DNA from: an uncultured Clostridia bacterium | GTDB lineage: Bacteria > Bacillota > Clostridia > TANB77 > CAG-508 | Direction: 5' to 3' | NCBI GenBank assembly: GCA_947630235.1 | Contig: CANRGN010000022.1 | Span: 1-31,930 of the forward strand | Length of the DNA: 31,930 nt | Shown: piece after piece, positions 2,983 to 24,665 of the stretch | Position numbering within the stretch: the stretch's first letter is position 1 | How the letters are laid out: each line of letters begins with the position of its first letter | Translations under genes and position numbers: made by a program | The notes under the pieces: generated by a model | Seen by the model: only the letters and a program-made list of their open reading frames with translations | Database searches by the model: none | Told to the model about the DNA's origin: nothing

Positions 2983-3032
2983 TGTTCCACACTTTTAATT
3001 GCCAAAAAGTCTAATTTCAATAGTGTTCCACG
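2983..3032 (+). other. Two direct copies of the motif TGTTCCAC(A/G), at 2983-2991 and 3024-3032
   Basis: Read directly from the sequence. The 9-mer equals the left half of the Bacillus-type parS (TGTTNCACGTGAAACA) and shares the TCCAC core of DnaA boxes. The same motif occurs as an inverted pair at 5980-6006. Confidence 0.3.
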
Positions 3033-3222
3033 ATTTTCAATACTGGTTAACCTTAATATACATAATATTTAGTGGCTTATAACTCCAAAAAACATTTTCT
3101 TAAAATATATATTATAAAAAACAAAATAAAAAAAATCAATATAAAATAATAATTTTTTTTATTTATTTTTTTACTCGATAATTTTTTTAATTTAAAACAA
3201 TAATAAATCTTTTCTCATAAAA

Positions 3223-3283
3223 CATTTTCTTATGTTAGACTATTAAAATATATTGCAATGTACACGTTAAATTATTCGTGCTA
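3223..3283. repeat. Diverged solo copy of the 135-bp repeat family core
   Basis: CATTTTCTTATGTTAGACTATTAAAATATATTGCAATGTACACGTTAAATTATTCGTGCTAC aligns with the first ~60 nt of the tandem unit at 2591. Confidence 0.6.
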
Positions 3284-3284
3284 C

Positions 3285-7713: not shown

Positions 7714-8412
7714 TTATTTTAAAGATACTACTAATTTTCTATTTGGCTCTTCTCCAACACTATGTGTTTTTACTTTAGAATTATTTTGTAATCTTAAATG
7801 TATTATTTTTCTTTCATAAGCACTCATTGGCTCTAAAGTAATTGATCTTCCAGTTTTTATTACATTAGAAGCAATTCTATCTGCTAAATTTTGTAAATCT
7901 TTTTCTCTTTTTTGTCTATATCCACTTATATTTAATGCTATTTTTATTTTTCCATTAGATTTTTTATTGGCTACATTTGTTAATATTGTTTGTAAACTAT
8001 TTAAAACTTCTCCTCTATATCCAATTAAAAAACCAGTATCTTCGCCTTCTACATCAACATAAATATAATTTTCTTCATCTCTTATTTTAAAAGATAATTT
8101 GTTTTTTTCAAATTTTGAAACAAATTCATTCATGAATTTGTTAACTTGTTCAACAATTTCTTTGATATCAACATCTTTAACTTCTAATTTCTTTTTTGGT
8201 ATTGTAGTTTTATTATTTTCTTCTTTATTATTTTCTTTTAAAGTAATTTCGACTTTTACTACTCTAGGCGTTAAAATACTAAAAAAGCTTCTTTTTTCTT
8301 CTGATTCTAAAATTTTTATGTCTACTTTGTTTTTAGATACTTTTAATTCACTTAAACCTTTTTCAATTGCCTCAGTAGTAGTTTTTCCTTCGAAAATATA
8401 ACTTTTTTCCAT
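7714..8412 (-). CDS. jag: RNA-binding protein Jag/KhpB (Jag_N, KH and R3H domains)
   Basis: 232 aa with a KH-like GYRGEVLNSLQ and R3H ERKIIHLRLQ. It has the conserved position after yidC. Confidence 0.85.
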   Translation of the reverse strand: MEKSYIFEGKTTTEAIEKGLSELKVSKNKVDIKILESEEKRSFFSILTPRVVKVEITLKENNKEENNKTTIPKKKLEVKDVDIKEIVEQVNKFMNEFVSKFEKNKLSFKIRDEENYIYVDVEGEDTGFLIGYRGEVLNSLQTILTNVANKKSNGKIKIALNISGYRQKREKDLQNLADRIASNVIKTGRSITLEPMSAYERKIIHLRLQNNSKVKTHSVGEEPNRKLVVSLK

Positions 8413-8415
8413 TTA

Positions 8416-9294
8416 TTATTCCTCCTCAGTTTTAAACACTTTATATACAAGTACTCTTTCACCTATAGATAATAAATTACTTAAAAACCAATATAAAGCA
8501 AGACCCAAAGGTGCAATTAGTGCTATACTAACTGTCATAATTGGCATCATTAAACTCATATTTTTGTTCATCTGCTCCATCATTTCAGCTGTATCAACAT
8601 CTTCATTATTATCAACTTTTTTTGGTAAATTAGTTTTAATATTTTTCTTTTCCTCTTTATTTTTTTTACTCGAATTTAAAGCTGTTGTTATTTTCATTGA
8701 TGCAATTGAGGTTATTACATATAATATAGGAATTATAAATACTTTAGGATCTTTATAATCTTGTGTTGGTACTGAACTTAAATTCAAGCCTAAAAAATCC
8801 ATATTAATATTTATTTTATTATCCTCATTTCCAAATCTATTTATTACAGCAATTTCTGGATATCTAAGTGTATTATTATTACTTTCTTGAGATTCTTTTT
8901 GAATAGTGGTTATATAACTATTTATTTCCTCTGGATTCATATTTAACATATATGTTAAAGGTCTACTAACTAAATAAAACATTGATAAAATAACAATAAA
9001 TTGAAAAATTGTACTTAAACATCCACTAAATGGATTCATATTTTCTTTTTTATATAAATCCATAATTTCTTGATTCATTCTTGTAGGATCACTTGAATAT
9101 TTATCTTGTATTTCTCTTACTTTACCTTGTATATACGCAGATTTTTTCATAGTTTTTTGTTGTTTTAACGTTATTGGTAATAAAACTAATTTTAAAATAA
9201 CAGTAAAAATAATTATAGCTAAACCATAATTATTAACAATACCATAAATAAAATTTAAAACGAAGCCAAAAATTTTTGCACAGAATTTAAGCAT
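8416..9294 (-). CDS. yidC: Membrane protein insertase YidC/SpoIIIJ-type
   Basis: 292 aa and polytopic, with the motif LLPITLKQQKTMK. It has a long K/E-rich cytoplasmic loop and sits in the yidD-yidC-jag context. Confidence 0.9.
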   Translation of the reverse strand: MLKFCAKIFGFVLNFIYGIVNNYGLAIIIFTVILKLVLLPITLKQQKTMKKSAYIQGKVREIQDKYSSDPTRMNQEIMDLYKKENMNPFSGCLSTIFQFIVILSMFYLVSRPLTYMLNMNPEEINSYITTIQKESQESNNNTLRYPEIAVINRFGNEDNKININMDFLGLNLSSVPTQDYKDPKVFIIPILYVITSIASMKITTALNSSKKNKEEKKNIKTNLPKKVDNNEDVDTAEMMEQMNKNMSLMMPIMTVSIALIAPLGLALYWFLSNLLSIGERVLVYKVFKTEEE

Positions 9295-10307: not shown

Positions 10308-10385
10308 TTTTCCACAGCATTGTGCACAAAAAAAGCCTTATATTTCAATATTTTTAAAATAGGCTGTGGATAACCTTGTGGATAA
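10308..10385. promoter_or_regulatory. oriC DnaA-box cluster upstream of dnaA
   Basis: TTTTCCACA (10308-10316) and two perfect TGTGGATAA boxes (10365-10373 and 10377-10385), plus TGTGCACAA at 10321. Confidence 0.8.
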
Positions 10386-10422: not shown

Positions 10423-11775
10423 ATGTACTCTGATAAAAATGACTTACTTACAAAAGCCAAAACATTGTTACAAGATGAAATTACAGCAATATCATATTCA
10501 ACATGGATAAAAACATTAGAAATTGAGAGCGTTAATGATAATAAAATAACATTATTAGTTAATTCAAAAATGCAAAAAGATGCAATAGAATCTAGACTAT
10601 TTGATCTTGTAGTTAATGCATTTAATTTAATTACTAATAAATCTTGTGAAGTAACAATAGTTGAAAAATCAAAAGAAGTATTATCAGTTAATAAAGAGGA
10701 AAAAATTACAAACGAGAATTACACTAATACTGAAAGTTATACTAATAGCTTTTTAAATCCTAAATACACTTTTGATAATTTTGTTGTTGGTAATAGTAAT
10801 AAGTTTGCTCAAGCCGCAGCACAAGCTGTTGCAAAATCGCCAGCTACTGCTTATAATCCTTTATTTATATATGGAGGAGTGGGTCTTGGAAAAACCCATT
10901 TAATGCATGCTATAGGTAATTACATATTATCAAATAATCCATCATCAAAAATTTTATACACAACATCAGAAAAGTTTATTAACGAATTAGTAAATTCTAT
11001 AAAAGACGCTAATTATAAAAATGAATTATTTAGAAATAAATATAGAAATATTGATGTATTACTTATTGATGATATTCAATTTATCGCAGGTAAGAAAACT
11101 GGACAAGAAGAGTTTTTTCACACTTTTAATACATTACATGAAAATGGAAAACAAATAATAATCTCTAGTGATAAACCGCCAAGAGATATTCCTTTATTAG
11201 AAGAAAGATTAAAATCTAGATTTGAATGGGGAATACTTGCGGATATTTCCATGCCAGATTATGAAACTCGTTTAGCCATTTTAAGAAAAAAAGTTCAAAT
11301 AGAAAATATAATTATAGATGATTACATATTATCAGTTATAGCTACAAAAATAGATTCAAATATTAGAGAATTAGAAGGTGCATTAAATAAAATTATTGCT
11401 TATGCATCTTTAACTCATAGTCCAATTACAATAGAAATGGCAGAAAAAGCTATAAATGATATTGTTTTGCAAAAAGAAAAAATAATTTCTGCTGACTATA
11501 TACAAGAAATAGTAGCAAAATACTTTAACATAGATAAAAAAGATTTAGTTTCTAGTAAAAAATCTAACGACATTGTACATCCAAGGCAAATAGCAATGTA
11601 TTTATGTAGAGAAATTGGACAAATGTCTTTTCCTAAGATAGGAGATGAATTTGGAAAAAGAGATCATACTACGGTTATGCATGCTTACAAAAAAATTGAA
11701 AAAGAAATTAAAGAAAACACAAACACAAAATTAGTTGTGGAAAGTGTGAAAAACATTATTAATGAAACTAAATAA
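10423..11775 (+). CDS. dnaA: Chromosomal replication initiator DnaA
   Basis: 450 aa with Walker A GGVGLGKTHLMHAIG, Walker B LLIDDIQF and the C-terminal DNA-binding helix RQIAMYLCRE..HTTVMHA. Confidence 0.97.
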   Translation: MYSDKNDLLTKAKTLLQDEITAISYSTWIKTLEIESVNDNKITLLVNSKMQKDAIESRLFDLVVNAFNLITNKSCEVTIVEKSKEVLSVNKEEKITNENYTNTESYTNSFLNPKYTFDNFVVGNSNKFAQAAAQAVAKSPATAYNPLFIYGGVGLGKTHLMHAIGNYILSNNPSSKILYTTSEKFINELVNSIKDANYKNELFRNKYRNIDVLLIDDIQFIAGKKTGQEEFFHTFNTLHENGKQIIISSDKPPRDIPLLEERLKSRFEWGILADISMPDYETRLAILRKKVQIENIIIDDYILSVIATKIDSNIRELEGALNKIIAYASLTHSPITIEMAEKAINDIVLQKEKIISADYIQEIVAKYFNIDKKDLVSSKKSNDIVHPRQIAMYLCREIGQMSFPKIGDEFGKRDHTTVMHAYKKIEKEIKENTNTKLVVESVKNIINETK

Positions 11776-13223: not shown

Positions 13224-13255
13224 TTATCCACATTTTGGTAACAAAAAGTGGATAA
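13224..13255. promoter_or_regulatory. Convergent pair of DnaA boxes (TTATCCACA ... AGTGGATAA) forming an 8-bp inverted repeat
   Basis: A perfect box at 13224-13232 and a near-perfect reverse box at 13247-13255, in the 43-nt dnaN-recF spacer. Confidence 0.6.
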
Positions 13256-14334: not shown

Positions 14335-16272
<1,938 letters not shown>

Positions 16273-16278
16273 ATAACA

Positions 16279-16307
16279 GAAAACCCCCAAGTTAGGGGGT
16301 TTTCTTT
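16279..16307 (+). terminator. Rho-independent terminator of gyrB
   Basis: GAAAACCCCC-AAGTTA-GGGGGTTTTC followed by TTT, 7 nt after the gyrB stop. Confidence 0.9.
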
Positions 16308-16901
16308 ATAAAGTTTATAATGACTTTCAGCTAAGCATATATTTCCAAATATTTCACTCTAATATATATTACTATATAACTAGAATTAATACCTAAAAAT
16401 ATACACAGTTGCTAGAACATAAATGCACCAATGGCAGTTAAATTCGTCCTATTAAAGGATTATAATTAACAACGTATAATGCAAATATATTCATGACTTC
16501 GAATATTTTTCTAAAATTTTACTTCTTGTAATCTATAATCAAGAAATATACTCCTAAAAAAATACTTTTAACGAAGACTAATAATATCTAAATTAGATAT
16601 TACTAATCAGTTGCTCGACTCATATATAATCATAATAGATTATATACGAATCTAAGTTAGGCCAATATAAACCTTACAATAGTATTATATGATTAATTTA
16701 AATTTTTATTCTTTTTTTTTTAATTTTTTTCTTTTTCTATTCCTAATATATTTAAACCGTATTTTAAATCACTTATTTTTTTTCAGAATTAATTCTTTTT
16801 GCTATTTTTAATATACTTTTTTAACACAATTTTTTTCAAAAATGACCTATGAAAAATTTACTTTATACTTTTCAATAATTTTTACTGTCAAACTTAAAAA
16901 A

Positions 16902-17812
16902 ATATCCACTTTTTTTCTAATTCTAATTATATTTCTAAAAAAACTTTAATGTGGAAAACTATATTTTTTTTAATAAATTTAGGTTGTGGAAATCTTATTT
17001 TTGAAAAATAATGTGTATAAATATTTTTTCACTGTGAATAAAAATTTAATAAAAAAATTTTTAAAAAATTAAATTATTAAAAAATATATTTTTCAAAAAG
17101 CCAAAAATAAGAAAAAATTATAGCTTAAAAGACAAGATGAAAAATTTGGAAATTTAAAATTTAAAGAAATGTTTGTTTTATAATATCGAAAATTCGATTT
17201 ACATAAATATTTTAGACTTTTTCTTTTTGACAATTCAAAATTAAGAAGCAAAATTTAAATAATAAATAAAAAAAGAAAATATGATAATTAAATTTAGAAA
17301 AAATTTTGGAAAAAATTAATAAAAAAAATAATTATAAAAAATTTTTTCTATTTAATTAATTATGTAAAATTAAATTGTAAAAAAATTGAAATATTTAAAT
17401 ATCAACAGTTAAAGTTGTGGAAATCTATTATGCGTAAGAAAAAAATATTAAGTTTACAATAATTTTAAGAAATAAATAATAGTGAAGTTATAAAAAAATA
17501 TATACCAGATAAAAAAATATGATAAAAATATAAAAACAAGAAAATTATTTACAAAAAGACAATTAAAAAGTCTTTAAAATAAATAATTTTATATTTTAAA
17601 ATTTTTATAAAAATAATTTGAAAATATAAAATTATTTTTATAAAAACATGAAAAAAATTGATGCTTAAAAAAAGTTTTTTTATAATCAAATTTAGCTTTA
17701 TATAAATTAATTTGAAAATTTGAAATTATTTTTTAAAAAAATTTTTTCAAGTAATTGTTAATAAATTTTGAATAAATAAAAATAATTATCCACAAAGAAC
17801 AATAGTGGATAT
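16902..17812. promoter_or_regulatory. Cluster of at least 7 DnaA-box-like motifs inside a 1.7 kb AT-rich non-coding spacer
   Basis: ATATCCACT (16902), TGTGGAAAA (16950), TGTGGAAAT (16985), TGTGAATAA (17033), TGTGGAAAT (17416), a perfect TTATCCACA (17786) and AGTGGATAT (17804). The 13-mer GTTGTGGAAATCT is repeated exactly at 16983 and 17414. Confidence 0.55.
17602..17646. repeat. Perfect 18-bp inverted repeat with a 9-nt loop
   Basis: TTTTTATAAAAATAATTT (17602-17619) and AAATTATTTTTATAAAAA (17629-17646), loop GAAAATATA. Confidence 0.8.
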
Positions 17813-17857
17813 TTTTTATGTAATATTGCAAAGTCCACGTTAAATTGTTCGCGCGAC
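17813..17857. repeat. Solo copy of the repeat-family core immediately upstream of T4SS module 1
   Basis: TTTTTATGTAATATTGCAAAGTCCACGTTAAATTGTTCGCGCGAC aligns with ..ATATACTGCAAAGTCTAAGTTAAATTGTTCGTGCAAC of the tandem units at 2591 and 2726. Confidence 0.6.
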
Positions 17858-17976
17858 AATTTTTAAAATTGTGTGCAATGATTTTATTCAGTCTATTTAC
17901 AGAAAACTTTCCAACTTAATAAAAAATAATCAAAAAAGAATGTTTAAAATTTTTTTGATTTTTTGACAAAAGAATA

Positions 17977-18005
17977 TTGACAACTATATCGGAATGATAT
18001 ATTAT
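17977..18005 (+). promoter_or_regulatory. Candidate sigma-A promoter of T4SS module 1
   Basis: TTGACA (17977-17982), a 17-nt spacer, then TATTAT (18000-18005). A second TTGACA lies at 17963. Confidence 0.5.
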
Positions 18006-18599
18006 AAAATAAATTTTACGAAAGGAGGTTTAAACATAAAAAATTTTGAGTCAACTCAAAATTGGTTGCCATACGATAAAATTTTTAATAATGGAATAAT
18101 ATTATATAAAAATTATTATTTAAAATTAATAAAAGTTATTCCTATCAATTATGATTTAAAATCTAATCTAGAAAAAGAAGCTATTTTAAATTCTTATAAA
18201 ATTTTTTTAAAAACTTGTAATTTTGATTCTCAAATTTTAATTCAAAGTAAAAAAGAAAATTTATCTAAACATTTTTCCAAATTAAAAGAAATTGAAAATA
18301 CCTATATTGATAAGAATGTTGAACAAATTTATAAAAATTACTATTCTTATATTTTAGAGTTAAATAAAAATAATAAATCTTCATCTAAAAATTTTTATAT
18401 TATTATAAAGTATAAATTAGAAAGTTTTAAATTAGAAGATTGCAATAGAGATAAAGAAGCTACAGTAAATTTAAATGATATGTATTTTAAAATAAAAGAA
18501 TGTTTATCTAGATGTGGCAATTCAATTTTTGATGTAAATACTAAAGAGGAAGTAGAAGAGATATTTTATTCCTTCTACAATTTAAGACTAAATTTATAA
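17994..18599 (+). CDS. VirB4-family N-terminal domain expressed as a separate ORF (first part of a split conjugative ATPase)
   Basis: NWLPYDKIFNNGIILYKNYYLKLIKVIPINYDLKSNLEKEAILNSYKIFL matches the characteristic N-terminus of Gram-positive VirB4/TcpF/Orf16-type ATPases. The ATG at 17994 has no SD and lies inside the predicted promoter. A strong SD, AAAGGAGG (18021-18028), is followed after 7 nt by an in-frame ATA at 18036, so the true start is probably there. Confidence 0.6.
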   Translation: MIYYKINFTKGGLNIKNFESTQNWLPYDKIFNNGIILYKNYYLKLIKVIPINYDLKSNLEKEAILNSYKIFLKTCNFDSQILIQSKKENLSKHFSKLKEIENTYIDKNVEQIYKNYYSYILELNKNNKSSSKNFYIIIKYKLESFKLEDCNRDKEATVNLNDMYFKIKECLSRCGNSIFDVNTKEEVEEIFYSFYNLRLNL

Positions 18600-18709
18600 A
18601 CGAAAGGAGAATTATTGCGGATTTTTTAAAAGGAAGTTTTAAAGCGAAAGATAAAATTGCTCCAAGTTATATCAGTAATCTAAATCCCAAATATTTAGAA
18701 ATTGATAGT

Positions 18710-20353
18710 ATGCTTTTTTCAGGATTAATGGTGGTTGATTATTATAGAGAATATAATGATATTATTTTAAAGAATATAATAGATACTAATATTAATGTAA
18801 ATTTATCTATGTTTTATGAAAAACAGGATAATTATAAAATAATAAAAGATTTAACATATTATATTGGAAATGTTGGAGTAGATTTAAAGGATAATGGTGA
18901 TAATAGAAATGATATAGATATTGCTGCATTTTCTTATCAAGATGCTAAGTATATTAGAAAAGAGCTTCAAGTTAATAATGAAGATTTTTATTTTTTGTTT
19001 TTATACATAGTTGTATATGCAGAAGCTGAAAGAGAATTAAATTTTTTACTAAATAAAGTTGAAGGAATATTGCAATCTTCTGGTTTAATAACAAGAAGAG
19101 CAACCTTTAGGCAAGAGCAAGTATTTAAAGCTTGTTTACCAATCCAGGAAAATTCTATAGATATAAAAGAAGTAAGTAAAAGAAATATTTTAACAAGTGG
19201 TATGGTTTCAACATTTCCATTTGTATCATCTAATATTTTTGATGAAAATGGAGTTTTTATGGGAACTAATCTTTATAATAATTCTTTAGTTTTTATAGAT
19301 AGATTTTCTAAAGAAAAATATAAAAATGCAAATATGTGTGTATTTGGTACAAGTGGTGCTGGAAAATCCTTTTTTATCAAATTACAAATTTTAAGATATT
19401 GGATGTTTGGAATTGATCAATATGTAATAGATCCTGAGCATGAATATTATAAAATAGCAGAAAGTTTAAATGGAACTTTAATAAAAATTGGCCCAACAAG
19501 TAATACTTTTGTAAATATTTTTGATATAAGAGAGGATTCTATTGAAGAAGGAAATGGTTATTTAGCTACTAAATTAAACAAATTGAAGGGATTTTTCTCA
19601 TTAATATTTGAAGATTTAAATGATGAAAAATATTCTATATTAGAAAATAAAATAATAAAAATGTATCAAAAAAAAGGAATAAATTTTGATGATTCTAGTT
19701 TATATAGAGATAATAAATTTAAAACTAGTGAAGAAATGCCTATTTTAGAAGATTTATATAATGAATTTTCTCCTGAAGATAATTATTATAAAAATAAATT
19801 AAATATTTTTATAAATGGAAGTTTAAGTTTTTTTAATAACAAAACTAATGTTAATCTAGATAATAAACTTATTATTGCAGATATTTATGAATTAGGTGAA
19901 GATAATTTAAAATATGGAATGTTTATTTTTGTAGATTTGTTTTGGGATAAAATTAAAAAAGAAAGAAATAAAAATAAAGCAATCTATTTAGATGAAATTT
20001 GGAGATTGATAGGTGTTGTTTCTAATAAAGAAGTTGCAAGTTTTATTTATAAAATCTTTAAAACTATAAGAAAATTTGGAGGAAGCAGTGTAGCAATTAC
20101 ACAAGATATTTCAGATTTATTTAGTTTAGATGATGGAATTTATGGAAAAAGTATTTTGAATAATTCAAATATAAAAACTTTCTTCTCTTTAGAAGAGGAA
20201 AATATATCAACTTTAGAAAAATACACTAATATTAGTGAAAAAGAAAAAGTAGAAATAAAATCTTTAAAAAGAGGAGAATGTTTAATGTTTGTTCAAGATA
20301 ATCATATTTTAGTAAAAATTGAATCATCAGATTTTGAAAAAGAATTAATATAA
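18710..20353 (+). CDS. VirB4-family T4SS ATPase, C-terminal ATPase part
   Basis: Walker A VFGTSGAGKSFF followed by VIDPEHEYY, Walker B AIYLDEIW, then RKFGGSSVAITQDISD and LKRGECLMF. Together these are the diagnostic pattern of Gram-positive VirB4 (CD1110/Orf16/PrgJ type). The reading frame is open from 18545. The upstream in-frame peptide IAPSYISNLNPKYLEIDS also looks VirB4-like, so coding probably starts by 18611-18614 (ATT) or by frameshift from the preceding ORF. Confidence 0.85.
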   Translation: MLFSGLMVVDYYREYNDIILKNIIDTNINVNLSMFYEKQDNYKIIKDLTYYIGNVGVDLKDNGDNRNDIDIAAFSYQDAKYIRKELQVNNEDFYFLFLYIVVYAEAERELNFLLNKVEGILQSSGLITRRATFRQEQVFKACLPIQENSIDIKEVSKRNILTSGMVSTFPFVSSNIFDENGVFMGTNLYNNSLVFIDRFSKEKYKNANMCVFGTSGAGKSFFIKLQILRYWMFGIDQYVIDPEHEYYKIAESLNGTLIKIGPTSNTFVNIFDIREDSIEEGNGYLATKLNKLKGFFSLIFEDLNDEKYSILENKIIKMYQKKGINFDDSSLYRDNKFKTSEEMPILEDLYNEFSPEDNYYKNKLNIFINGSLSFFNNKTNVNLDNKLIIADIYELGEDNLKYGMFIFVDLFWDKIKKERNKNKAIYLDEIWRLIGVVSNKEVASFIYKIFKTIRKFGGSSVAITQDISDLFSLDDGIYGKSILNNSNIKTFFSLEEENISTLEKYTNISEKEKVEIKSLKRGECLMFVQDNHILVKIESSDFEKELI

Positions 20354-20366
20354 CAAGGAGGAAATT

Positions 20367-21419
20367 TTGAAAAAAATAATTACAGTAAATGGTAATGAAG
20401 ATTTAAATAATATGTTAAGAAAATTTAATGATATAGAAGTAAAAGAAAGAGATATTTTTTATAAAGAAGGTGTTTTAGATTTTTTAGAGAAAGATTCAGA
20501 TTTAGATATTATAATTCTTAGTGAAGAGTTATTTGGTGATGAATTATTTGATTATTTAAAAAATATAAGCATTTATAAAATATCAATTTATATAATTACA
20601 AATAAAAAACATTATATGGAGGAATTTGAATCATTTTCAGATATAAAATTATTTAATACGGAGGAGGATATTATAGATGATTTAGAAAATAGTAATTATT
20701 CTCTTAATAAAAGTAATAATTGTTTGCTCAAAAATACCAAAAGGGTAATGTCTATTATAGGAAGTTATGGAGTAGGAAAAACAATTTTTTGTAGTCTTTT
20801 GGGAAAAACTTTAGCTAAAACAAATAAAGTATTATTAGTTAATTTTGATATTTTTAGTAATAACTTAAAATATCTATTTGATATAAAAAAGCAAATTACT
20901 TCTTATAGTATTGAATCATTAATAACAAAATCAAGTAAAAATTTATATATATTAAATGGAATAAAATATATATTTAATGAAACAAATAAAATAAATACAT
21001 ATAAAGTTAAAGAGTTATTAGATCAGCTTAAAAATAGTTTTGATTATATTGTAATAGATACATCAAGTGAAATTTCTTTAAAATATATTAAAACTATATT
21101 TCCAAATTGTGATTATAATATATTTTTAATAGAATCTAATTCATTAGAAATAAAAAAAGCAAAAGAATTATTAGAAATATATGTTATGGATTTTAATTTA
21201 GATTTAAATAAAACTGGGATATTCATAAATAAATATAATATTGATTCTATTGATACTAATATAATTAAGCAAATTTTTAAAGATATTAAAGTATTAGGGA
21301 AGGTAAATTATACTCCTAAAATTAATTCATATATAAATACTTATACTAAAAATAATATAAAAGTTGATGATATAGTAAATTTTAAAAAATATTTGAAGGG
21401 AGAGATAAAAAATAGATAA
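20367..21419 (+). CDS. Two-domain protein: an N-terminal receiver-like (pseudo-receiver) domain plus a ParA/MinD-superfamily P-loop ATPase, a CpaE/TadZ-like architecture
   Basis: TTG start 6 nt after the SD AAGGAGG. The central P-loop is VMSIIGSYGVGKTIFCSLLG, where SY replaces the KG of the deviant Walker A. Walker B is YIVIDTSSE. The N-terminal ~110 aa has an alternating beta/alpha pattern (KIITVNG..DLDIIILSE). Confidence 0.55.
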   Translation: MKKIITVNGNEDLNNMLRKFNDIEVKERDIFYKEGVLDFLEKDSDLDIIILSEELFGDELFDYLKNISIYKISIYIITNKKHYMEEFESFSDIKLFNTEEDIIDDLENSNYSLNKSNNCLLKNTKRVMSIIGSYGVGKTIFCSLLGKTLAKTNKVLLVNFDIFSNNLKYLFDIKKQITSYSIESLITKSSKNLYILNGIKYIFNETNKINTYKVKELLDQLKNSFDYIVIDTSSEISLKYIKTIFPNCDYNIFLIESNSLEIKKAKELLEIYVMDFNLDLNKTGIFINKYNIDSIDTNIIKQIFKDIKVLGKVNYTPKINSYINTYTKNNIKVDDIVNFKKYLKGEIKNR

Positions 21420-21519
21420 TTTAATAGTTAATGCTAGTAATAATGTTTTAGAAAATACTTTAAATAATAATTTAGAAAAAGCACAAAATAGTTTTTTAAA
21501 AAGTAAATTTGGAAATGTT

Positions 21520-22137
21520 GTGAATAATGCTTTAAATATTGGCTTAAAAGCTGTACTTCCAGATTTTGTCGAGGATCAAATTATTGATGTTAAAGATGCA
21601 ATATTACAAGATGGAGTAAAAGCTGGAATAAAAGAAGCAATTGATAGTTCAATTGATTTAGGAAAAAGCATAACAGGAATTTTTACTGGTAAATTTGATA
21701 ATATGAATCAGATTAATAATGTAGTTAAAAAAGGGGGATTAATTGATGCTGTTAATTCTGTTCTAGGAAAAGGAATTGATCTTGCCGTAGATAAAGGGAT
21801 AGTAAATAAAAGTGTAGGAAAAATTATAGAGAGTGGTAAAAAAACAATTTTAAAAAATGTAAGTAATAGTATAGAAAATACTTTAGAAAAACAAGTTACT
21901 TCAATTGAAAAATTAGATAAATATTGTGAAAATTGGAAGGAAGCGTATAATAATCAAGATTTATCGAATATGGATAAATATTATAAAAATATGAATAAAG
22001 AGCTTGAAAAAATAGTTCCACTTGAAACTACATTAAATAAAGCAAGAGAAATAGAAAATCTTCATAACTTAATAAAAAATAATGGAGGAAATTTTAATAT
22101 TTCAAAGGAAGAATTGGCTTTAGCACAAATTTTATAG
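21520..22137 (+). CDS. Hypothetical helical/coiled-coil protein, last gene of module 1
   Basis: The ORF has no recognisable motif, TM segment or signal peptide. The frame is open from 21409. The SD GGGAGAG (21398-21404) is followed by an in-frame ATA at 21412, giving a likely 241-aa product that overlaps the preceding stop codon. The GTG at 21520 has a poor SD. Confidence 0.5.
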   Translation: MNNALNIGLKAVLPDFVEDQIIDVKDAILQDGVKAGIKEAIDSSIDLGKSITGIFTGKFDNMNQINNVVKKGGLIDAVNSVLGKGIDLAVDKGIVNKSVGKIIESGKKTILKNVSNSIENTLEKQVTSIEKLDKYCENWKEAYNNQDLSNMDKYYKNMNKELEKIVPLETTLNKAREIENLHNLIKNNGGNFNISKEELALAQIL

Positions 22138-22226: not shown

Positions 22227-24665
22227 ATGGAAAGACAAGAAGAACGTATTATTGAAAGAAACATAGATTTAGAGATGAGAACTGCTTATATGGATTATGC
22301 AATGAGCGTTATAGTTTCTAGAGCTTTACCAGATGCTAGAGATGGTTTAAAACCTGTTCATAGAAGAATTCTATATACAATGCATGAGGATGGAATTACA
22401 TCAGATAAGCCATATAGAAAATGTGCAACTACTGTTGGAGATGTTTTAGGTAGATATCATCCACATGGTGATGCTTCTGTTTATGATGCTTTAGTTAGAT
22501 TAGCTCAAGATTTCTCCATGAGATATCAAATGGTTGATGGTCATGGAAATTTTGGATCAATTGATGGTGATGGTGCTGCTGCATATCGTTATACAGAAGC
22601 AAGAATGTCAAAAATATCTGAAAGAATGCTTGATGATATTGAAAAGAATACAGTGGATTTTATGCCAAACTTTGATGGAAGGTTATTAGAGCCTACTGTA
22701 CTTCCAGCAAAGATACCTGCATTGCTTGTAAATGGTTCATCAGGAATCGCTGTCGGTATGGCTACAAATATACCACCGCATAATTTAACTGAAGTGGTAA
22801 ATGGTATAATAAAAGTTATAGAAAATCCAGATGTTACTATTGAAGAATTAATGCAAATAATAAAAGGTCCAGATTTCCCAACAGGTGCTATGATTCTTGG
22901 AAGAGAAGGTATTAAACAAGCTTATACAACAGGAAAAGGAAAAATAAGTGTTAGAGCAGAAGCTGAAATTGAAGAAATGTCTGGAAATAAACAAAGAATA
23001 GTAGTACATTCACTTCCATATCAAGTTAATAAAGCTAAACTTATTGAGAATATTGCAGATCTTGTAAAAGATAAAAAAATTGAAGGAATTAGTGATATTA
23101 GAGATGAATCAGACAGAAAAGAAAAAGTAAGAATTGTAATTGAACTTAAGAGAGATGCAAGACCTCAAGTAATTTTAAATCAATTATATAAACATACGCA
23201 AATGCAAGATACTTTTGGTATAATAACTCTTGCTTTAGTAGATGGAAAACCTGAAATATTAACTTTAAGACAATGTTTAGATGTATATATAAATCATAGA
23301 AAAGAAGTAGTAGTTAGAAGAACAAAATTTGAACTTGAAAAAGCAGAAGCTAGAGCTCATATTTTAGAAGGCTTATTAATTGCTATTGATAATATAGATG
23401 AAGTTATAAAAATAATTCGTGAATCTTATGATGACGCTAAAGAAAGATTGATGGAAAGGTTTAAACTTTCAGATATTCAAGCACAAGCTATCCTTGATAT
23501 GCAACTTAAGAGATTATCTGGTTTGCAAAGAGAAAAATTAGAAGATGAATACAATGAACTAATGAAGCTTATTGCTTATTATAAAGAAGTTTTAGCTAAT
23601 GAATCTATGGTTTATGATATTATTAAAAAAGAATTATTAGAAATAAAAGAAAAATTTGGTGATGAAAGATTAACTAAAATAACAGCAGCAGAAGGTGAAT
23701 TTAATGAGGAAGATTTAATAAAAGAAGAACAAACTGTTGTTGCACTTACTCATTTTGGTTATATTAAGAGAATGCCAGTTGATACTTATAGATCACAAAA
23801 ACGTGGAGGAAAAGGTATAACAGGTATATCTACAAAGGAAGATGATTTTGTTAAATCAATTTTCACAGCTTCAACACATGATATAATTCTATTCTTTACA
23901 AATAAAGGAAAGATGTATAGATTACGTGGTTTTGAAATTCCAGAATGTGGAAGAACAGCTAGAGGTACTGCAATAGTTAATCTATTAAATCTTGATAGTG
24001 GAGAAAAAGTTTCTGCAATAATTCCTATTCAAAATTACGCAGATGGAAAATATATTTTAATGGGAACTAAAAATGGTATTGTAAAGAAAACACCGCTTAA
24101 AGAATATGACTCAAGTAGAACTACGGGATTATTAGGAATAACATTAAAAGAAGATGATGAACTTATAGATGTTAGATTAACTGATGGTGAAGATAATATA
24201 GTATTTGTTACTAGAAAAGGTTTATCTATAACATTTGATGAAAAAGATGTAAGACCAATAGGAAGAACTTCTCAAGGCGTTATAGCAATGAGGTTAGATG
24301 ATGATGATTTTGTTATAGGAATGGAACCTATTATTTCAAGAAGTAATGCTACTCTTCTTGCAATTACAGAAAATGGATTTGGAAAGAGAACAGAACTGGA
24401 TGAATATAGAGTTCAAAATAGAGGAGGAAGAGGTGTTATTACTTATAAAATTACACCAAAAACAGGTGATATTGTAGGAATAAAAGTTGTTAATGGAAAT
24501 GAAGATGTAATGCTTATTACTGATACAGGAACAATTATTAGAATGAAGGTTGAAGAAATAAGTATTCTTGGAAGATCAACACAAGGAGTAACACTTATGA
24601 GAACAAACGATGGAAAAGTAGTAAGTATTGAAACAATTGAGCCTGAAAATGAAGATGAAGAATAA
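22227..24665 (+). CDS. gyrA: DNA gyrase subunit A
   Basis: 812 aa with N-terminal YMDYAMSVIVSRALPDARDGLKPVHRR, the catalytic Tyr region AAAYRYTEARM, the QRDR-like HPHGDASVYDALVRLAQ and C-terminal beta-pinwheel repeats. Confidence 0.97.
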   Translation: MERQEERIIERNIDLEMRTAYMDYAMSVIVSRALPDARDGLKPVHRRILYTMHEDGITSDKPYRKCATTVGDVLGRYHPHGDASVYDALVRLAQDFSMRYQMVDGHGNFGSIDGDGAAAYRYTEARMSKISERMLDDIEKNTVDFMPNFDGRLLEPTVLPAKIPALLVNGSSGIAVGMATNIPPHNLTEVVNGIIKVIENPDVTIEELMQIIKGPDFPTGAMILGREGIKQAYTTGKGKISVRAEAEIEEMSGNKQRIVVHSLPYQVNKAKLIENIADLVKDKKIEGISDIRDESDRKEKVRIVIELKRDARPQVILNQLYKHTQMQDTFGIITLALVDGKPEILTLRQCLDVYINHRKEVVVRRTKFELEKAEARAHILEGLLIAIDNIDEVIKIIRESYDDAKERLMERFKLSDIQAQAILDMQLKRLSGLQREKLEDEYNELMKLIAYYKEVLANESMVYDIIKKELLEIKEKFGDERLTKITAAEGEFNEEDLIKEEQTVVALTHFGYIKRMPVDTYRSQKRGGKGITGISTKEDDFVKSIFTASTHDIILFFTNKGKMYRLRGFEIPECGRTARGTAIVNLLNLDSGEKVSAIIPIQNYADGKYILMGTKNGIVKKTPLKEYDSSRTTGLLGITLKEDDELIDVRLTDGEDNIVFVTRKGLSITFDEKDVRPIGRTSQGVIAMRLDDDDFVIGMEPIISRSNATLLAITENGFGKRTELDEYRVQNRGGRGVITYKITPKTGDIVGIKVVNGNEDVMLITDTGTIIRMKVEEISILGRSTQGVTLMRTNDGKVVSIETIEPENEDEE

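Follow-up and report, generated by a model that had tools for sequence, protein, structure and literature searches.

In Bacillus subtilis, DnaA-box clusters (DBCs) that are intergenic and proximal to oriC bind DnaA and restrain initiation, and datA of Escherichia coli is their functional analogue (PMC3245932). OLE, ROOL, GOLLD and raiA belong to another kind of element, the large structured bacterial non-coding RNA (ncRNA), whose function is either unknown or has recently begun to emerge (PMC12286853, PMC10861870). Large, intricately folded bacterial RNAs of no known function are rare, and their study has repeatedly given new biochemistry.

Candidates for both kinds of element are encountered in the spacer that follows gyrB in an uncultured Clostridia bacterium. 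The window, i.e., the whole stretch of DNA that was analysed, comprises 31,930 nucleotides of contig CANRGN010000022.1 (assembly GCA_947630235.1). A structured ncRNA in 16320-16700, which the original prediction for this spacer had raised as a side remark, was borne out and is the strongest result of the follow-up.

The gyrB stop codon is at 16272, and the next gene probably starts at 18036. The spacer predicted at 16308-17993 is real, but its right border is probably at 18035 and not at 17993, because the ATG at 17994 falls inside the best promoter of the region, between its -35 (17977-82) and -10 (18000-05) elements and upstream of the ribosome-binding site (RBS), and homologues align from an ATA codon at 18036. 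The elements of the right end are as follows.

17977-17982 and 18000-18005, plus strand: promoter, TTGACA, 17 nt, TATTAT, the best in the region (11/12)
18020-18028, plus strand: RBS, GAAAGGAGG
18036, plus strand: probable ATA start codon

A TTGACW-17-TAWWAT promoter, an RBS and the in-frame ATA are kept in L092, L093 and L094. These are the genus-level relatives (L092/L094 and L093), in which a neighbouring protein is 77-79% identical. More distant homologues have an ATG start at the equivalent residue. The right end of the spacer is probably the strong sigma-70-type promoter and RBS of the split-virB4 operon, with ATA as the probable start.

The GC content is 16.5% over 16308-17993, 14.3% over 16690-17976, and 11% over 17051-17400. 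An assembly artefact as the source of the spacer was ruled out, since its 1721 bp are 100% identical across three independent assemblies. Ultra-AT-rich spacers of this type interrupt metagenome assemblies; the contig of this organism (L001) and that of the closest sampled relative (L006) both end inside or adjoining the spacer region.

The spacer contains no open reading frame (ORF) of at least 60 codons, as predicted, and the longest has 52 amino acids and a TTG start. The accompanying claim that ATG-initiated ORFs do not exceed 12 codons was wrong: ORFs of 40, 35, and 20 amino acids are present, none of which is conserved. A decayed gene was also considered and rejected. The spacer of the relative L002 carries an M14 peptidase ORF, with which tblastn against the window returned only noise, and the AT-rich body, compared with 86 related loci by blastn and tblastx, produced nothing beyond low-complexity matches. 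It is likely that the 1.7-kb gap is a composite of an RNA gene, AT-rich DNA with DnaA boxes, and the expression signals of the operon.

DnaA boxes in the AT-rich body

Box-like sites and other elements are distributed along the AT-rich body as follows.

16690-16940: DNA that is T-rich on the plus strand and poorly conserved, GC 14.9%, between the ncRNA promoter and cluster A
16902, plus strand: weaker box-like ATATCCACT
16950-17041, minus strand: cluster A, with TTTTCCACA at 16950, ATTTCCACA at 16985, TTATACACA at 17012, and TTATTCACA at 17033, all in one orientation
17187-17208, plus strand: conserved island cgaaaattcgatTTTACAtaaat, at least 83% three-way identical columns
17414-17426, minus strand: site B, the second copy of the 13-mer GTTGTGGAAATCT, containing box-like ATTTCCACA at 17416
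17449-17463 and 17540-17554: similar TTTACA-containing islands, at least 83% three-way identical columns
17602-17646: 18-bp inverted repeat of A/T only with a 9-nt spacer, inside a locally duplicated and inverted stretch, 17565-17750
17756-17812: cluster C, with TTATTAACA at 17756 (minus), TTATTCAAA at 17767 (minus), a perfect TTATCCACA at 17786 (plus), and ATATCCACT at 17804 (minus)
17823-17925, plus strand: copy of a repeat unit, 75% identity, specific to this genome

These 1.3 kb might be neutral filler that has grown by slippage, in which the boxes are relics or chance occurrences; nothing but the RNA gene and the operon promoter would then be of importance. Several properties of the spacer agree with this. 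Its length at the gyrB site varies from 0.14 to 3.4 kb among relatives; short-period tandem repeats, local duplications and inversions are numerous; and most columns are weakly conserved even inside the genus, with 12-47% of the columns in 16690-16940 identical in all four genus-level sequences. Fillers of 9-10% GC that lack boxes are present in other relatives (e.g., 1.27 kb at 9% GC in L080), and promoter-like sites in the spacer do not exceed those in shuffled sequence (26 vs. 20.2 +/- 4.6).

The number of strong boxes argues against neutral filler. The spacer at 16308-17993 has 1, 4 and 14 sites with 0, up to 1 and up to 2 mismatches, while 0.006, 0.35 and 6.0 are expected from shuffled sequence. 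In the AT-rich body there are four boxes with at most one mismatch where 0.24 are expected, which is an enrichment of about 17-fold that was reached in 0 of 2000 shuffles. The perfect box predicted at 17786 is present and forms a convergent pair with the box at 17804. The predicted total of at least seven boxes holds if two mismatches are allowed, but not under stricter limits; most of the box-like sites in the spacer carry two mismatches, and six such sites are expected per 1.7 kb of AT-rich DNA. Of the 14 intergenic regions of the window, the gyrB spacer and the three oriC regions are the only ones with boxes.

The position of the boxes is a second argument against neutral filler. The genus-level relatives keep a spacer of 1.7-1.9 kb, and at least eight box-like sites hold their position and orientation in three genus-level lineages. 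For each site of cluster A, L092 and/or L093 have a box-like partner that is aligned with it and oriented alike, and the partner of the 17012 site in L092 is a perfect TTATCCACA. The partner of site B is a perfect TTATCCACA in L093 and ATTTCCACA in L092, while the sites at 17756, 17767 and 17786 of cluster C keep their position in both. Thus, which site is the perfect box differs among lineages. Three-way identity is 69% in box columns vs. 40% elsewhere (P < 1/20000). Tight clusters of strong boxes are also found independently in the distant relatives L003 and L011, which have three strong boxes in a 270-bp version where 0.08-0.12 are expected. Neutral filler is, therefore, an improbable account of the AT-rich body, with a small but appreciable chance of being correct.

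About 45 other related loci with the same flanking genes have few or no boxes. Any role of DnaA is, therefore, lineage-specific, and not intrinsic to the RNA gene or to the type IV secretion system (T4SS) operon.

Other sequence features of the AT-rich body were confirmed as well, with differing significance. The predicted A-tract phasing is non-random: the spacing has components at 12.5 bp and 10.5 bp, whose z values (8.1 and 6.8, respectively) exceed the 95% null of 5.3. The 13-mer GTTGTGGAAATCT occurs exactly at 16983 and 17414, the first copy enclosing the cluster A box at 16985, and no 13-mer with at least five G/C was repeated in 200 shuffles. The inverted repeat (17602-17619/17629-17646) is perfect over its predicted 18 bp, where the longest in 200 shuffles was 16 bp. 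Conservation in relatives, which had been put forward as a check, separates these features: box positions are kept within the genus but the inverted repeat is not, and no inverted repeat of at least 11 bp was found at the aligned place in L092 and L093. This inverted repeat probably arose as a side effect when low-complexity DNA was duplicated locally. In the sequences compared, the exact identity of the 13-mers and the inverted repeat are lineage-specific.

Within the repeat unit at 17823-17925, the palindrome TCGCGCGA is where the spacer reaches its highest GC content. Further copies are located between parA and rsmG (2591-2725 and 2726-2860, with partial copies at 2861-2918 and 3223-3284), and the unit is absent from all related loci. 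No evidence of function was found for this copy or for the inverted repeat, both of which are lineage-specific additions. The TTTACA islands may be -35-like elements or sites for another factor; a promoter-like match is located at 17453-17480.

The enrichment of boxes over shuffles and their conserved position and orientation in genus-level relatives support the originally proposed auxiliary DnaA-binding or titration cluster, and the AT-rich body is predicted to be an oriC-proximal cluster similar to the DBCs of B. subtilis. From enrichment and positional conservation, we infer that binding of DnaA to the array would be the most likely mechanism. DnaA would bind at least eight box-like sites in three groups (about 16950-17041, 17416, and 17756-17812), 6.5 kb from oriC. 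This would buffer free DnaA and/or link the transcription of two divergent units, the RNA gene and the split-virB4 operon, to the status of DnaA. The box-bearing DNA is probably also a control region for both, and the roughly 1.3 kb of AT-rich, A-tract-phased DNA appears to have expanded in this genus.

The RNA gene downstream of gyrB

An 'empty' ultra-AT-rich spacer can conceal a gene. Comparative sequence evidence shows that the left quarter of the gap is an independent minus-strand gene for a structured ncRNA, composed of the following elements.

16278-16305, both strands: G+C-rich hairpin AAAACCCCC-N6-GGGGGTTTT with T-runs on both strands, from a terminator scan
16308-16677, minus strand: structured ncRNA core, ~370 nt (about 400 nt including the terminator)
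16660-16677/16308-16325, minus strand: P1, closing stem
16637-16652/16617-16632, minus strand: P3
16593-16609/16576-16592, minus strand: P4
16547-16567/16501-16526, minus strand: P5/P5a
16415-16492, minus strand: P6/6a/6b
16330-16412, minus strand: P7 and P8
16369-16372, minus strand: GNRA loop (GUAA) capping P8a
16684-16689, minus strand: -10 box TATAAT, 6 nt upstream of P1

Transcription would start after the -10 box at 16684-89, pass through the core from 16677 to 16308, and end at the hairpin (16305-16278). The -10 box is a property of the whole RNA family, with the consensus cATAaT in nearly invariant columns (16-22) of the alignment; a good -35 element was not found for the ncRNA promoter, and A/T tracts lie upstream. 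The terminator scan found two terminators on the minus strand vs. 0.0 expected, and the 16278-16305 hairpin is among those listed. This hairpin is predicted to be a bidirectional intrinsic terminator, common to gyrB on the plus strand and the ncRNA on the minus strand. The RNA region has no ORF of at least 20 amino acids on either strand.

The RNA block is present in 48 of the 58 related gut and rumen Clostridia loci that have a complete spacer from gyrB to the next gene, at a median distance of 45 bp from the gyrB stop codon. A search with nhmmer found it in 55 loci, in a single copy in each, and always at the same site and on the minus strand. Since the block is missing from the other 10 of the 58 loci, the RNA is dispensable, or encoded elsewhere, in these genomes.

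The alignment of the family (35 sequences, 584 columns, 57% mean column identity) gives a consensus of 119 pairs with RNAalifold and 134 pairs with ribosum scoring. Compensatory changes on both sides were found at 104 of the 134 pairs. The proportion of paired cells is 94.9%, compared to 80.2% in shuffles and about 40% with slid partners, and the covariation score is 0.472, compared to 0.204 (0 of 500 shuffles as high) and 0.09, respectively. All five measures of pairing and covariation are above 500 of 500 shuffles and above all slid controls. The signal is also specific to one strand, with an alifold energy of -163.6 on the minus strand vs. -43.6 on the plus strand. For the copy in the window, single-sequence folding gives a minimum free energy of -121.4 kcal/mol on the minus strand, as opposed to -52.9 on the plus strand (z = -12.2 and -2.6, respectively). 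G-U pairs are numerous and sensible on the minus strand only, and the variants of the tetraloop (GCAA, GUAA, GCGA, GAAA and GGAA) conform to GNRA on that strand only. Thus, judging by sequence, the block has compensatory pairs, a strand-specific signal, and a promoter and terminator of its own.

The predicted fold consists of a long closing stem that encloses five hairpin domains, one of which has the GNRA tetraloop. In the family consensus, six helices begin with (A)AGA(U/G) and end with (A/G)UC, and GAGC-type linkers lie between them. These similar motifs and linkers suggest that the architecture is modular and duplicated. Unpaired columns were scanned for pseudoknots, and no stacks of at least three covarying pairs were found. 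The palindromes that had been described as operator-like are present at 16583-16601 and 16623/16638. They are helices P4 and P3 of the ncRNA, respectively, with compensatory changes, rather than operators.

It could be argued that the left block is a DNA element (MITE-like with terminal inverted repeats, or a set of operator palindromes), since its ends are inverted repeats and palindromes lie inside it, or else a diverged RNase P, SRP, 6S or tmRNA, given that genes for housekeeping RNAs are often located near oriC in Firmicutes. A DNA element is difficult to reconcile with one copy per locus at a fixed site and orientation and none elsewhere in about 0.9 Mb of related sequence, with G-U tolerance and a GNRA loop restricted to one strand, or with the 104 covarying pairs. 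As for a known RNA, a covariance-model scan, which had been suggested as a check, was run with Rfam 15 and assigned the left block to no catalogued family. Neither the window nor 12 loci gave a match at the gathering score, and there was nothing relevant at E <= 10 in three representatives (the window, L003 and L084), although the families covered include RNase P, tmRNA, SRP, 6S, OLE, ROOL, GOLLD, raiA, HEARO and group I/II introns. ARAGORN found no tmRNA. The absence of the block from ten loci also stands against both versions, which are very unlikely.

A mobile-element origin of the RNA was rejected as well: it has no match in plasmids or viral contigs, and the one short match in phages is at chance level. 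No mention of an RNA that follows gyrB was found in two large surveys of candidate RNAs, bulk lists such as the 3161 motifs in PMC8040213 aside.

The RNA is possibly, although somewhat doubtfully, the first of a new class of large ncRNAs limited to low-GC gut and rumen Clostridia, in which five or six 'AAGAU...GUC' modules would be arranged in one multibranch loop. Under this proposal, it would be transcribed here from a control region occupied by DnaA, with the levels of the RNA and of split VirB4 tied to the initiation state. No gene is located downstream of the ncRNA on the minus strand. It is tempting to speculate that the RNA acts in trans as a folded scaffold rather than as a cis-regulator, with several copies of one partner bound to the repeated junction modules; the idea derives from repeated junction motifs in the consensus, and such a trans-acting scaffold is rather unlikely. 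The comparative support is unusually clean, with more than 100 covarying pairs and a fixed address beside the origin. Because the RNA is found widely in a gut and rumen lineage that is uncultured, it offers a well-defined target for structure probing, cryo-EM and partner pull-downs.

The split virB4 operon and the origin

The genes next to the spacer bear on whether it belongs to a mobile element. The order gyrB-spacer-split virB4-(ParA-like)-p205-gyrA is kept in all of the approximately 90 loci sampled, and the divergence of VirB4 tracks that of gyrB (r = 0.70, Mantel p = 0.001). This co-divergence indicates old, vertical inheritance. By these sequence comparisons, what had been called a T4SS module is a split virB4 cluster of the chromosome that is inherited vertically and occurs clade-wide. 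An exact look-up of the VirB4-like protein of the window returned no record. The scanned ORFs of the window, and those of neighbouring genes in relatives, gave no relaxase (MOB) domain, and no Rep, integrase or recombinase genes were found. Vertical inheritance and the lack of a relaxase both argue against an origin of transfer (oriT) or an origin derived from an integrative and conjugative element (ICE).

In favour of the suggestion that the spacer is an oriT or nic region for the adjacent type IV secretion genes are its location directly upstream of split virB4, with genes for a coupling protein and a VirB2-like protein nearby, and its curved AT-rich DNA with inverted repeats. The suggestion fails on several counts besides the missing relaxase. 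The 18-bp inverted repeat is not kept even within the genus, the left palindromes are RNA helices with compensatory changes, and in most relatives that carry this T4SS the RNA gene and the operon are just 130-300 bp apart, without any motif in common. An oriT function is, thus, highly improbable.

The cumulative GC skew of the window reaches its minimum at about 10.0-10.5 kb and turns at about 10.4 kb, beside dnaA. Perfect boxes at 10365, 10377 and 11962 flank dnaA in a standard bipartite oriC, located upstream of dnaA and between dnaA and dnaN, about 6.5 kb from the spacer. The least probable reading, with barely any chance of being correct, is that the spacer is a plasmid or ICE origin (relic or active) inserted with the T4SS genes, or a second chromosomal origin: although a DnaA-box array lies beside the extremely AT-rich stretch at 17051-17400 and T4SS-type genes split the usual gyrB-gyrA pair, this is contradicted by the synteny of all sampled loci, the co-divergence with gyrB, the lack of Rep, integrase or recombinase genes, an RNA region unlike plasmids or phages, and the skew switch and oriC at dnaA.

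Comparison with known systems

The oriT regions of Gram-positive conjugative elements resemble the spacer in being AT-rich, in having inverted repeats, and in lying beside T4SS genes. They differ in that here no relaxase gene and no conserved repeat or nic-like motif were found, and the spacer is not co-conserved with the T4SS genes.

The gyrB-adjacent RNA has more in common with OLE, ROOL, GOLLD and raiA. Similar to these, it has a gene to itself that measures several hundred nucleotides, and it combines numerous covarying helices with a GNRA tetraloop and with conserved nucleotides at the junctions. Its range is also narrow (anaerobic Firmicutes-type gut and rumen organisms), and its neighbours give no function. 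In contrast to them, it has a fixed site, convergent with gyrB and near oriC, rather than one in a prophage or beside a gene for a partner protein, and its architecture resembles a single multibranch loop with five or six hairpin modules that are alike. OLE, ROOL and GOLLD are larger, and Rfam 15 scans gave no match in sequence or structure to any of the four RNAs.

CsrB and RsmZ are multi-hairpin RNAs that sequester proteins. The gyrB-adjacent RNA may be compared with them in architecture only: it has repeated similar hairpin and junction modules, which would suit several copies of one partner, whereas GGA-loop motifs are absent and the helices are long and covarying.

The DBCs of B. subtilis are the closest counterpart of the box array. 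As in these clusters, several boxes occupy intergenic DNA that is not part of the origin itself but lies a few kb away from it, and box quality varies by site. Unlike them, the array is not compact, being spread over about 850 bp of A-tract-phased DNA of 14% GC, and is limited to one sub-lineage of the clade. It also differs from every B. subtilis DBC in being flanked by an ncRNA gene and a T4SS operon, and both DnaA binding and the effect on initiation are here predictions from sequence alone. If the predictions are correct, the idea of origin-proximal clusters, known from B. subtilis and E. coli, would also take in uncultured Clostridia, and DnaA would be linked with both an ncRNA gene and a type IV secretion operon on the chromosome. 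Since the array lies between promoters, DnaA could be both a titrated ligand and a transcription factor, as at the B. subtilis DBCs.

Gene order and the split virB4 operon

The window has a GC content of 24.1%, in a genome of about 24% GC with the standard bacterial genetic code. It covers the origin region, with its genes in the following order:

minus strand, first in the window: parB, parA, rsmG, mnmG, mnmE, jag, yidC and rnpA
10423-11775, plus strand: dnaA
plus strand, between dnaA and gyrB: dnaN and recF
14344-16272, plus strand: gyrB, with the spacer directly after it
after the spacer: a 201-aa ORF, a 547-aa VirB4/TraG-P-loop ATPase, a ParA/MinD-like ATPase and a 205-aa ORF (p205)
22227-24665, after the 205-aa ORF: gyrA
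minus strand, after gyrA: dnaI-like and DnaB_2/DnaD-like genes
after these: a coupling-protein gene and small ORFs

In the window, cumulative GC skew turns at about 10.0-10.5 kb, and dnaA is flanked by perfect DnaA boxes. The real oriC therefore lies at dnaA, about 6.5 kb from the spacer. A convergent DnaA-box pair, TTATCCACA-N14-TGTGGATAA, is situated directly 3' of dnaN (13224-13255) and is kept downstream of dnaN across species; it occurs in the related loci L002 (4423-4454 and 5561-5592, the second copy lying between recF and gyrB) and L003 (5098-5129). By eye, the 1-kb parA-rsmG intergenic region has matches resembling parS-consensus half-sites at 2983-2998 (TGTTCCACA...) and 3026-3041 (TGTTCCACG...). 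At the right end of the window, a 12-nt tandem repeat of AACAAGGAATTG (10.6 copies, 92% matches, 31683-31809) sits within a PD-(D/E)XK_2 (Rpn-type) transposase-like ORF.

In the NCBIfam CD1110-type VirB4 model, positions 1-161 are matched by the 201-aa ORF and positions 214-731 by the 547-aa ORF. What had been called T4SS module 1 therefore starts with a split virB4. Searching species-representative genomes once with the VirB4-like protein yielded 5 loci, all in uncultured Clostridia MAGs, and scanning metagenomes with a 5-sequence alignment added 80 loci of human-gut and rumen origin. When the 201-aa ORF product, read from its probable ATA start, served as a protein query and contigs were then looked up, five contigs belonging to the same organism were obtained, together with three genus-level lineages (L092, L093 and L094). 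The order gyrB-spacer-split virB4-(ParA-like)-p205-gyrA is broken in no sampled locus, longer related contigs also carry dnaA, dnaN and recF upstream, and the divergence of VirB4 is correlated with that of gyrB (r = 0.70, Mantel p = 0.001). The unbroken synteny and the co-divergence indicate that the T4SS-type genes have long belonged to the chromosome of the clade, passed on by vertical inheritance, and are no recent insertion.

These genes (17994-22137 and 27435-30768 in the window) are seen throughout the related loci L002-L097; in about 90 loci, they are located between gyrB and gyrA and next to dnaI/dnaB. The set comprises the split virB4 (about 185 aa for the N-domain ORF, about 550 aa for the ATPase ORF), the ParA/MinD-like ATPase, p205, the coupling protein, a weakly VirB2/T4SS-pilin-like p111, p288 and p95, and has the look of a domesticated system. 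The stand-alone VirB4 N-domain protein has 5410 homologues in the database.

A structured RNA gene next to gyrB

The spacer is 1721 bp long and base-for-base identical in three independent assemblies. The sequence facts of the original prediction are nearly all correct, the exceptions being the right edge and the statement that ATG ORFs have 12 codons or fewer, since ORFs of 40, 35 and 20 aa are present. In most loci the distance from gyrB to the next gene is about 570-720 bp; it is 140-430 bp in seven loci and 1-3.4 kb in about a dozen.

The most valuable content of the spacer is a gene for an unclassified, conserved structured RNA, whose core of about 370 nt occupies 16308-16677 on the minus strand. 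Alignment with the spacers of L002 and L003 reveals a conserved block of about 390 bp starting about 35 bp after gyrB; the remainder of those two spacers cannot be aligned with that of the window. Profile searches found the block in 55 loci, and it is present in 48 of the 58 with a complete spacer, in every case as a single copy on the minus strand (median distance from the gyrB stop, 45 bp). In a four-way alignment of the window and L092-L094, identity within the RNA is 75-82% for most blocks of 60 columns.

In an alignment of 35 minus-strand sequences with 57% mean column identity, the consensus fold has 119-134 pairs, of which 104 show changes on both sides. Paired cells amount to 94.9%, compared with 80.2% in shuffles and 37-43% with slid partners, and the covariation score is 0.472, compared with 0.204 and about 0.09, respectively; none of 500 shuffles matches any observed value. 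The fold belongs to the minus strand: the alifold energy is -163.6 there and -43.6 on the plus strand, and the window copy alone gives -121.4 kcal/mol (z = -12.2) and -52.9 (z = -2.6), respectively. Numerous G-U pairs, and a hairpin cap that is always GNRA (GCAA, GUAA, GCGA, GAAA or GGAA), are likewise found on the minus strand only. A near-invariant cATAaT precedes the closing stem by 6 nt; in the window it reads TATAAT (16684-89). The core, of 23.8% GC, is followed by a G+C-rich hairpin (16305-16278) with T-runs on either side. No ORF of at least 20 aa exists in the region on either strand. The support for an RNA gene is as good as sequence comparison permits, and a structured ncRNA, which the original prediction had only left open for the left part, is borne out by comparative evidence. 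The two operator-like palindromes reported there are helices of this RNA, P4 (16576-16609) and P3 (16617-16652).

Six helices of the consensus start with (A)AGA(U/G) and end with (A/G)UC, with GAGC-type linkers between them, which suggests construction from duplicated modules; pseudoknot stacks were not detected. As a tentative working guess, the RNA might be a trans-acting folded scaffold bearing repeated binding modules. Rfam 15 gave no match at gathering score, nor at E <= 10 in three representatives, and no match was found in plasmids, phages or viral contigs. The literature searched holds no description of this RNA, which may yet figure in bulk candidate lists.

The right end and other contents of the site

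Three features occupy the operon-proximal end:

17823-17925: copy (75% identity) of a unit tandemly repeated between parA and rsmG (2591-2860)
17977-82 and 18000-05: promoter, TTGACA and TATTAT separated by 17 nt, the best in the region (11/12)
18036: in-frame ATA, 7 nt after the RBS GAAAGGAGG

The promoter, RBS and ATA are kept in L092-L094, and more distant homologues have ATG at the equivalent residue. This non-canonical ATA is the probable start of the operon's first gene, and 18035 is a more likely right edge for the spacer than the 17993 originally proposed. The annotated ATG at 17994 is inside the promoter; in the genus-level lineages, gene callers placed the start at ATGs further inside the gene (giving 177 and 159 aa).

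The repeat unit is 135 nt long, with 2.3 tandem copies between parA and rsmG (2591-2918) and a partial copy at 3223-3284; the copies share the core GCAAAGTCYAMGTTAAATTGTTCGYGC. It was found only in this genome and is absent from all related loci compared. It could be a promoter/operator cassette, a small RNA or a selfish repeat.

In relatives, the site between RNA gene and operon takes cargo. In L002 it is occupied by an M14-type peptidase ORF (8198-9127, HHANEW motif by eye), and the long-spacer loci L008, L009, L014, L031 and L039 have inserts of 1.7-3.4 kb. L007 (4380-4640) and L029 (4867-5057) share a second, G+C-richer conserved block at this site (70% identity), which matches no Rfam family at gathering score and may be another ncRNA. 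In other members of the clade, ultra-AT-rich stretches of low-complexity filler, free of DnaA boxes and as long as several kb, recur at differing intergenic sites of the gene cluster, as in L080 (spacer of 1.27 kb, 9% GC), L083, L076 and L044 (at positions 7.7-12.2 kb). The contigs of L001 (this organism) and L006 (its closest sampled relative) terminate within or beside such DNA.

The AT-rich body and its DnaA boxes

The remaining 1.3 kb or so, between RNA gene and operon promoter, has a GC content of 14.3%, and is crowded with short-period tandem repeats and local duplications and inversions. It has no specific similarity to other wider-clade loci, and a search with the protein of the gene occupying the same site in L002 led to rejection of a decayed copy of that gene. 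The corresponding spacers of L092/L094 and L093 are 1.7-1.9 kb long with 17% GC; unlike the RNA, the body is mostly 12-50% identical per block in the four-way alignment.

Neutral filler is the main live rival explanation for this body, and the positional conservation of its DnaA boxes speaks against it. There are four boxes with at most one mismatch, compared with 0.24 expected (0 of 2000 shuffles), and among the 14 intergenic regions of the window, boxes occur only in three oriC regions and the spacer. Box-like sites are found at aligned positions 16950, 16985, 17012, 17033, 17416, 17756, 17767 and 17786 with their orientation kept, while the perfect box differs by lineage (17786 in the window, 17012 in L092, 17416 in L093). 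Three-way identity is 69% in box columns and 40% in the rest of the body (P < 1/20000). Three more conserved islands contain TTTACA (17187-17208, 17449-17463 and 17540-17554). Both 13-mers of the original prediction hold conserved box sites; their exact identity to each other is specific to the window, and the 18-bp inverted repeat is absent at L092 and L093.

Other proposed roles are not supported: an oriT or nic region, because the inverted repeat is not conserved and no relaxase was seen among the window ORFs and the neighbouring ORFs of relatives scanned; a plasmid or ICE origin, because gene order is kept and the genes diverge in step with the host; and a second origin, because the GC-skew switch lies elsewhere.

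The proposal of an auxiliary DnaA-binding cluster fares better, given the enrichment over shuffles and the position and orientation kept in L092 and L093. The more distant L003 and L011 have a compact 270-bp version, with three strong boxes 42-88 bp upstream of the RNA gene, and about 45 other loci have few or no boxes. By analogy, the array is best read as a candidate oriC-proximal DnaA-binding cluster like those of B. subtilis, for which DnaA binding, a restraining effect on initiation and an influence on neighbouring promoters have been shown (PMC3245932). The array here is lineage-specific, with a divergent ncRNA gene on one side and the split-virB4 operon on the other.
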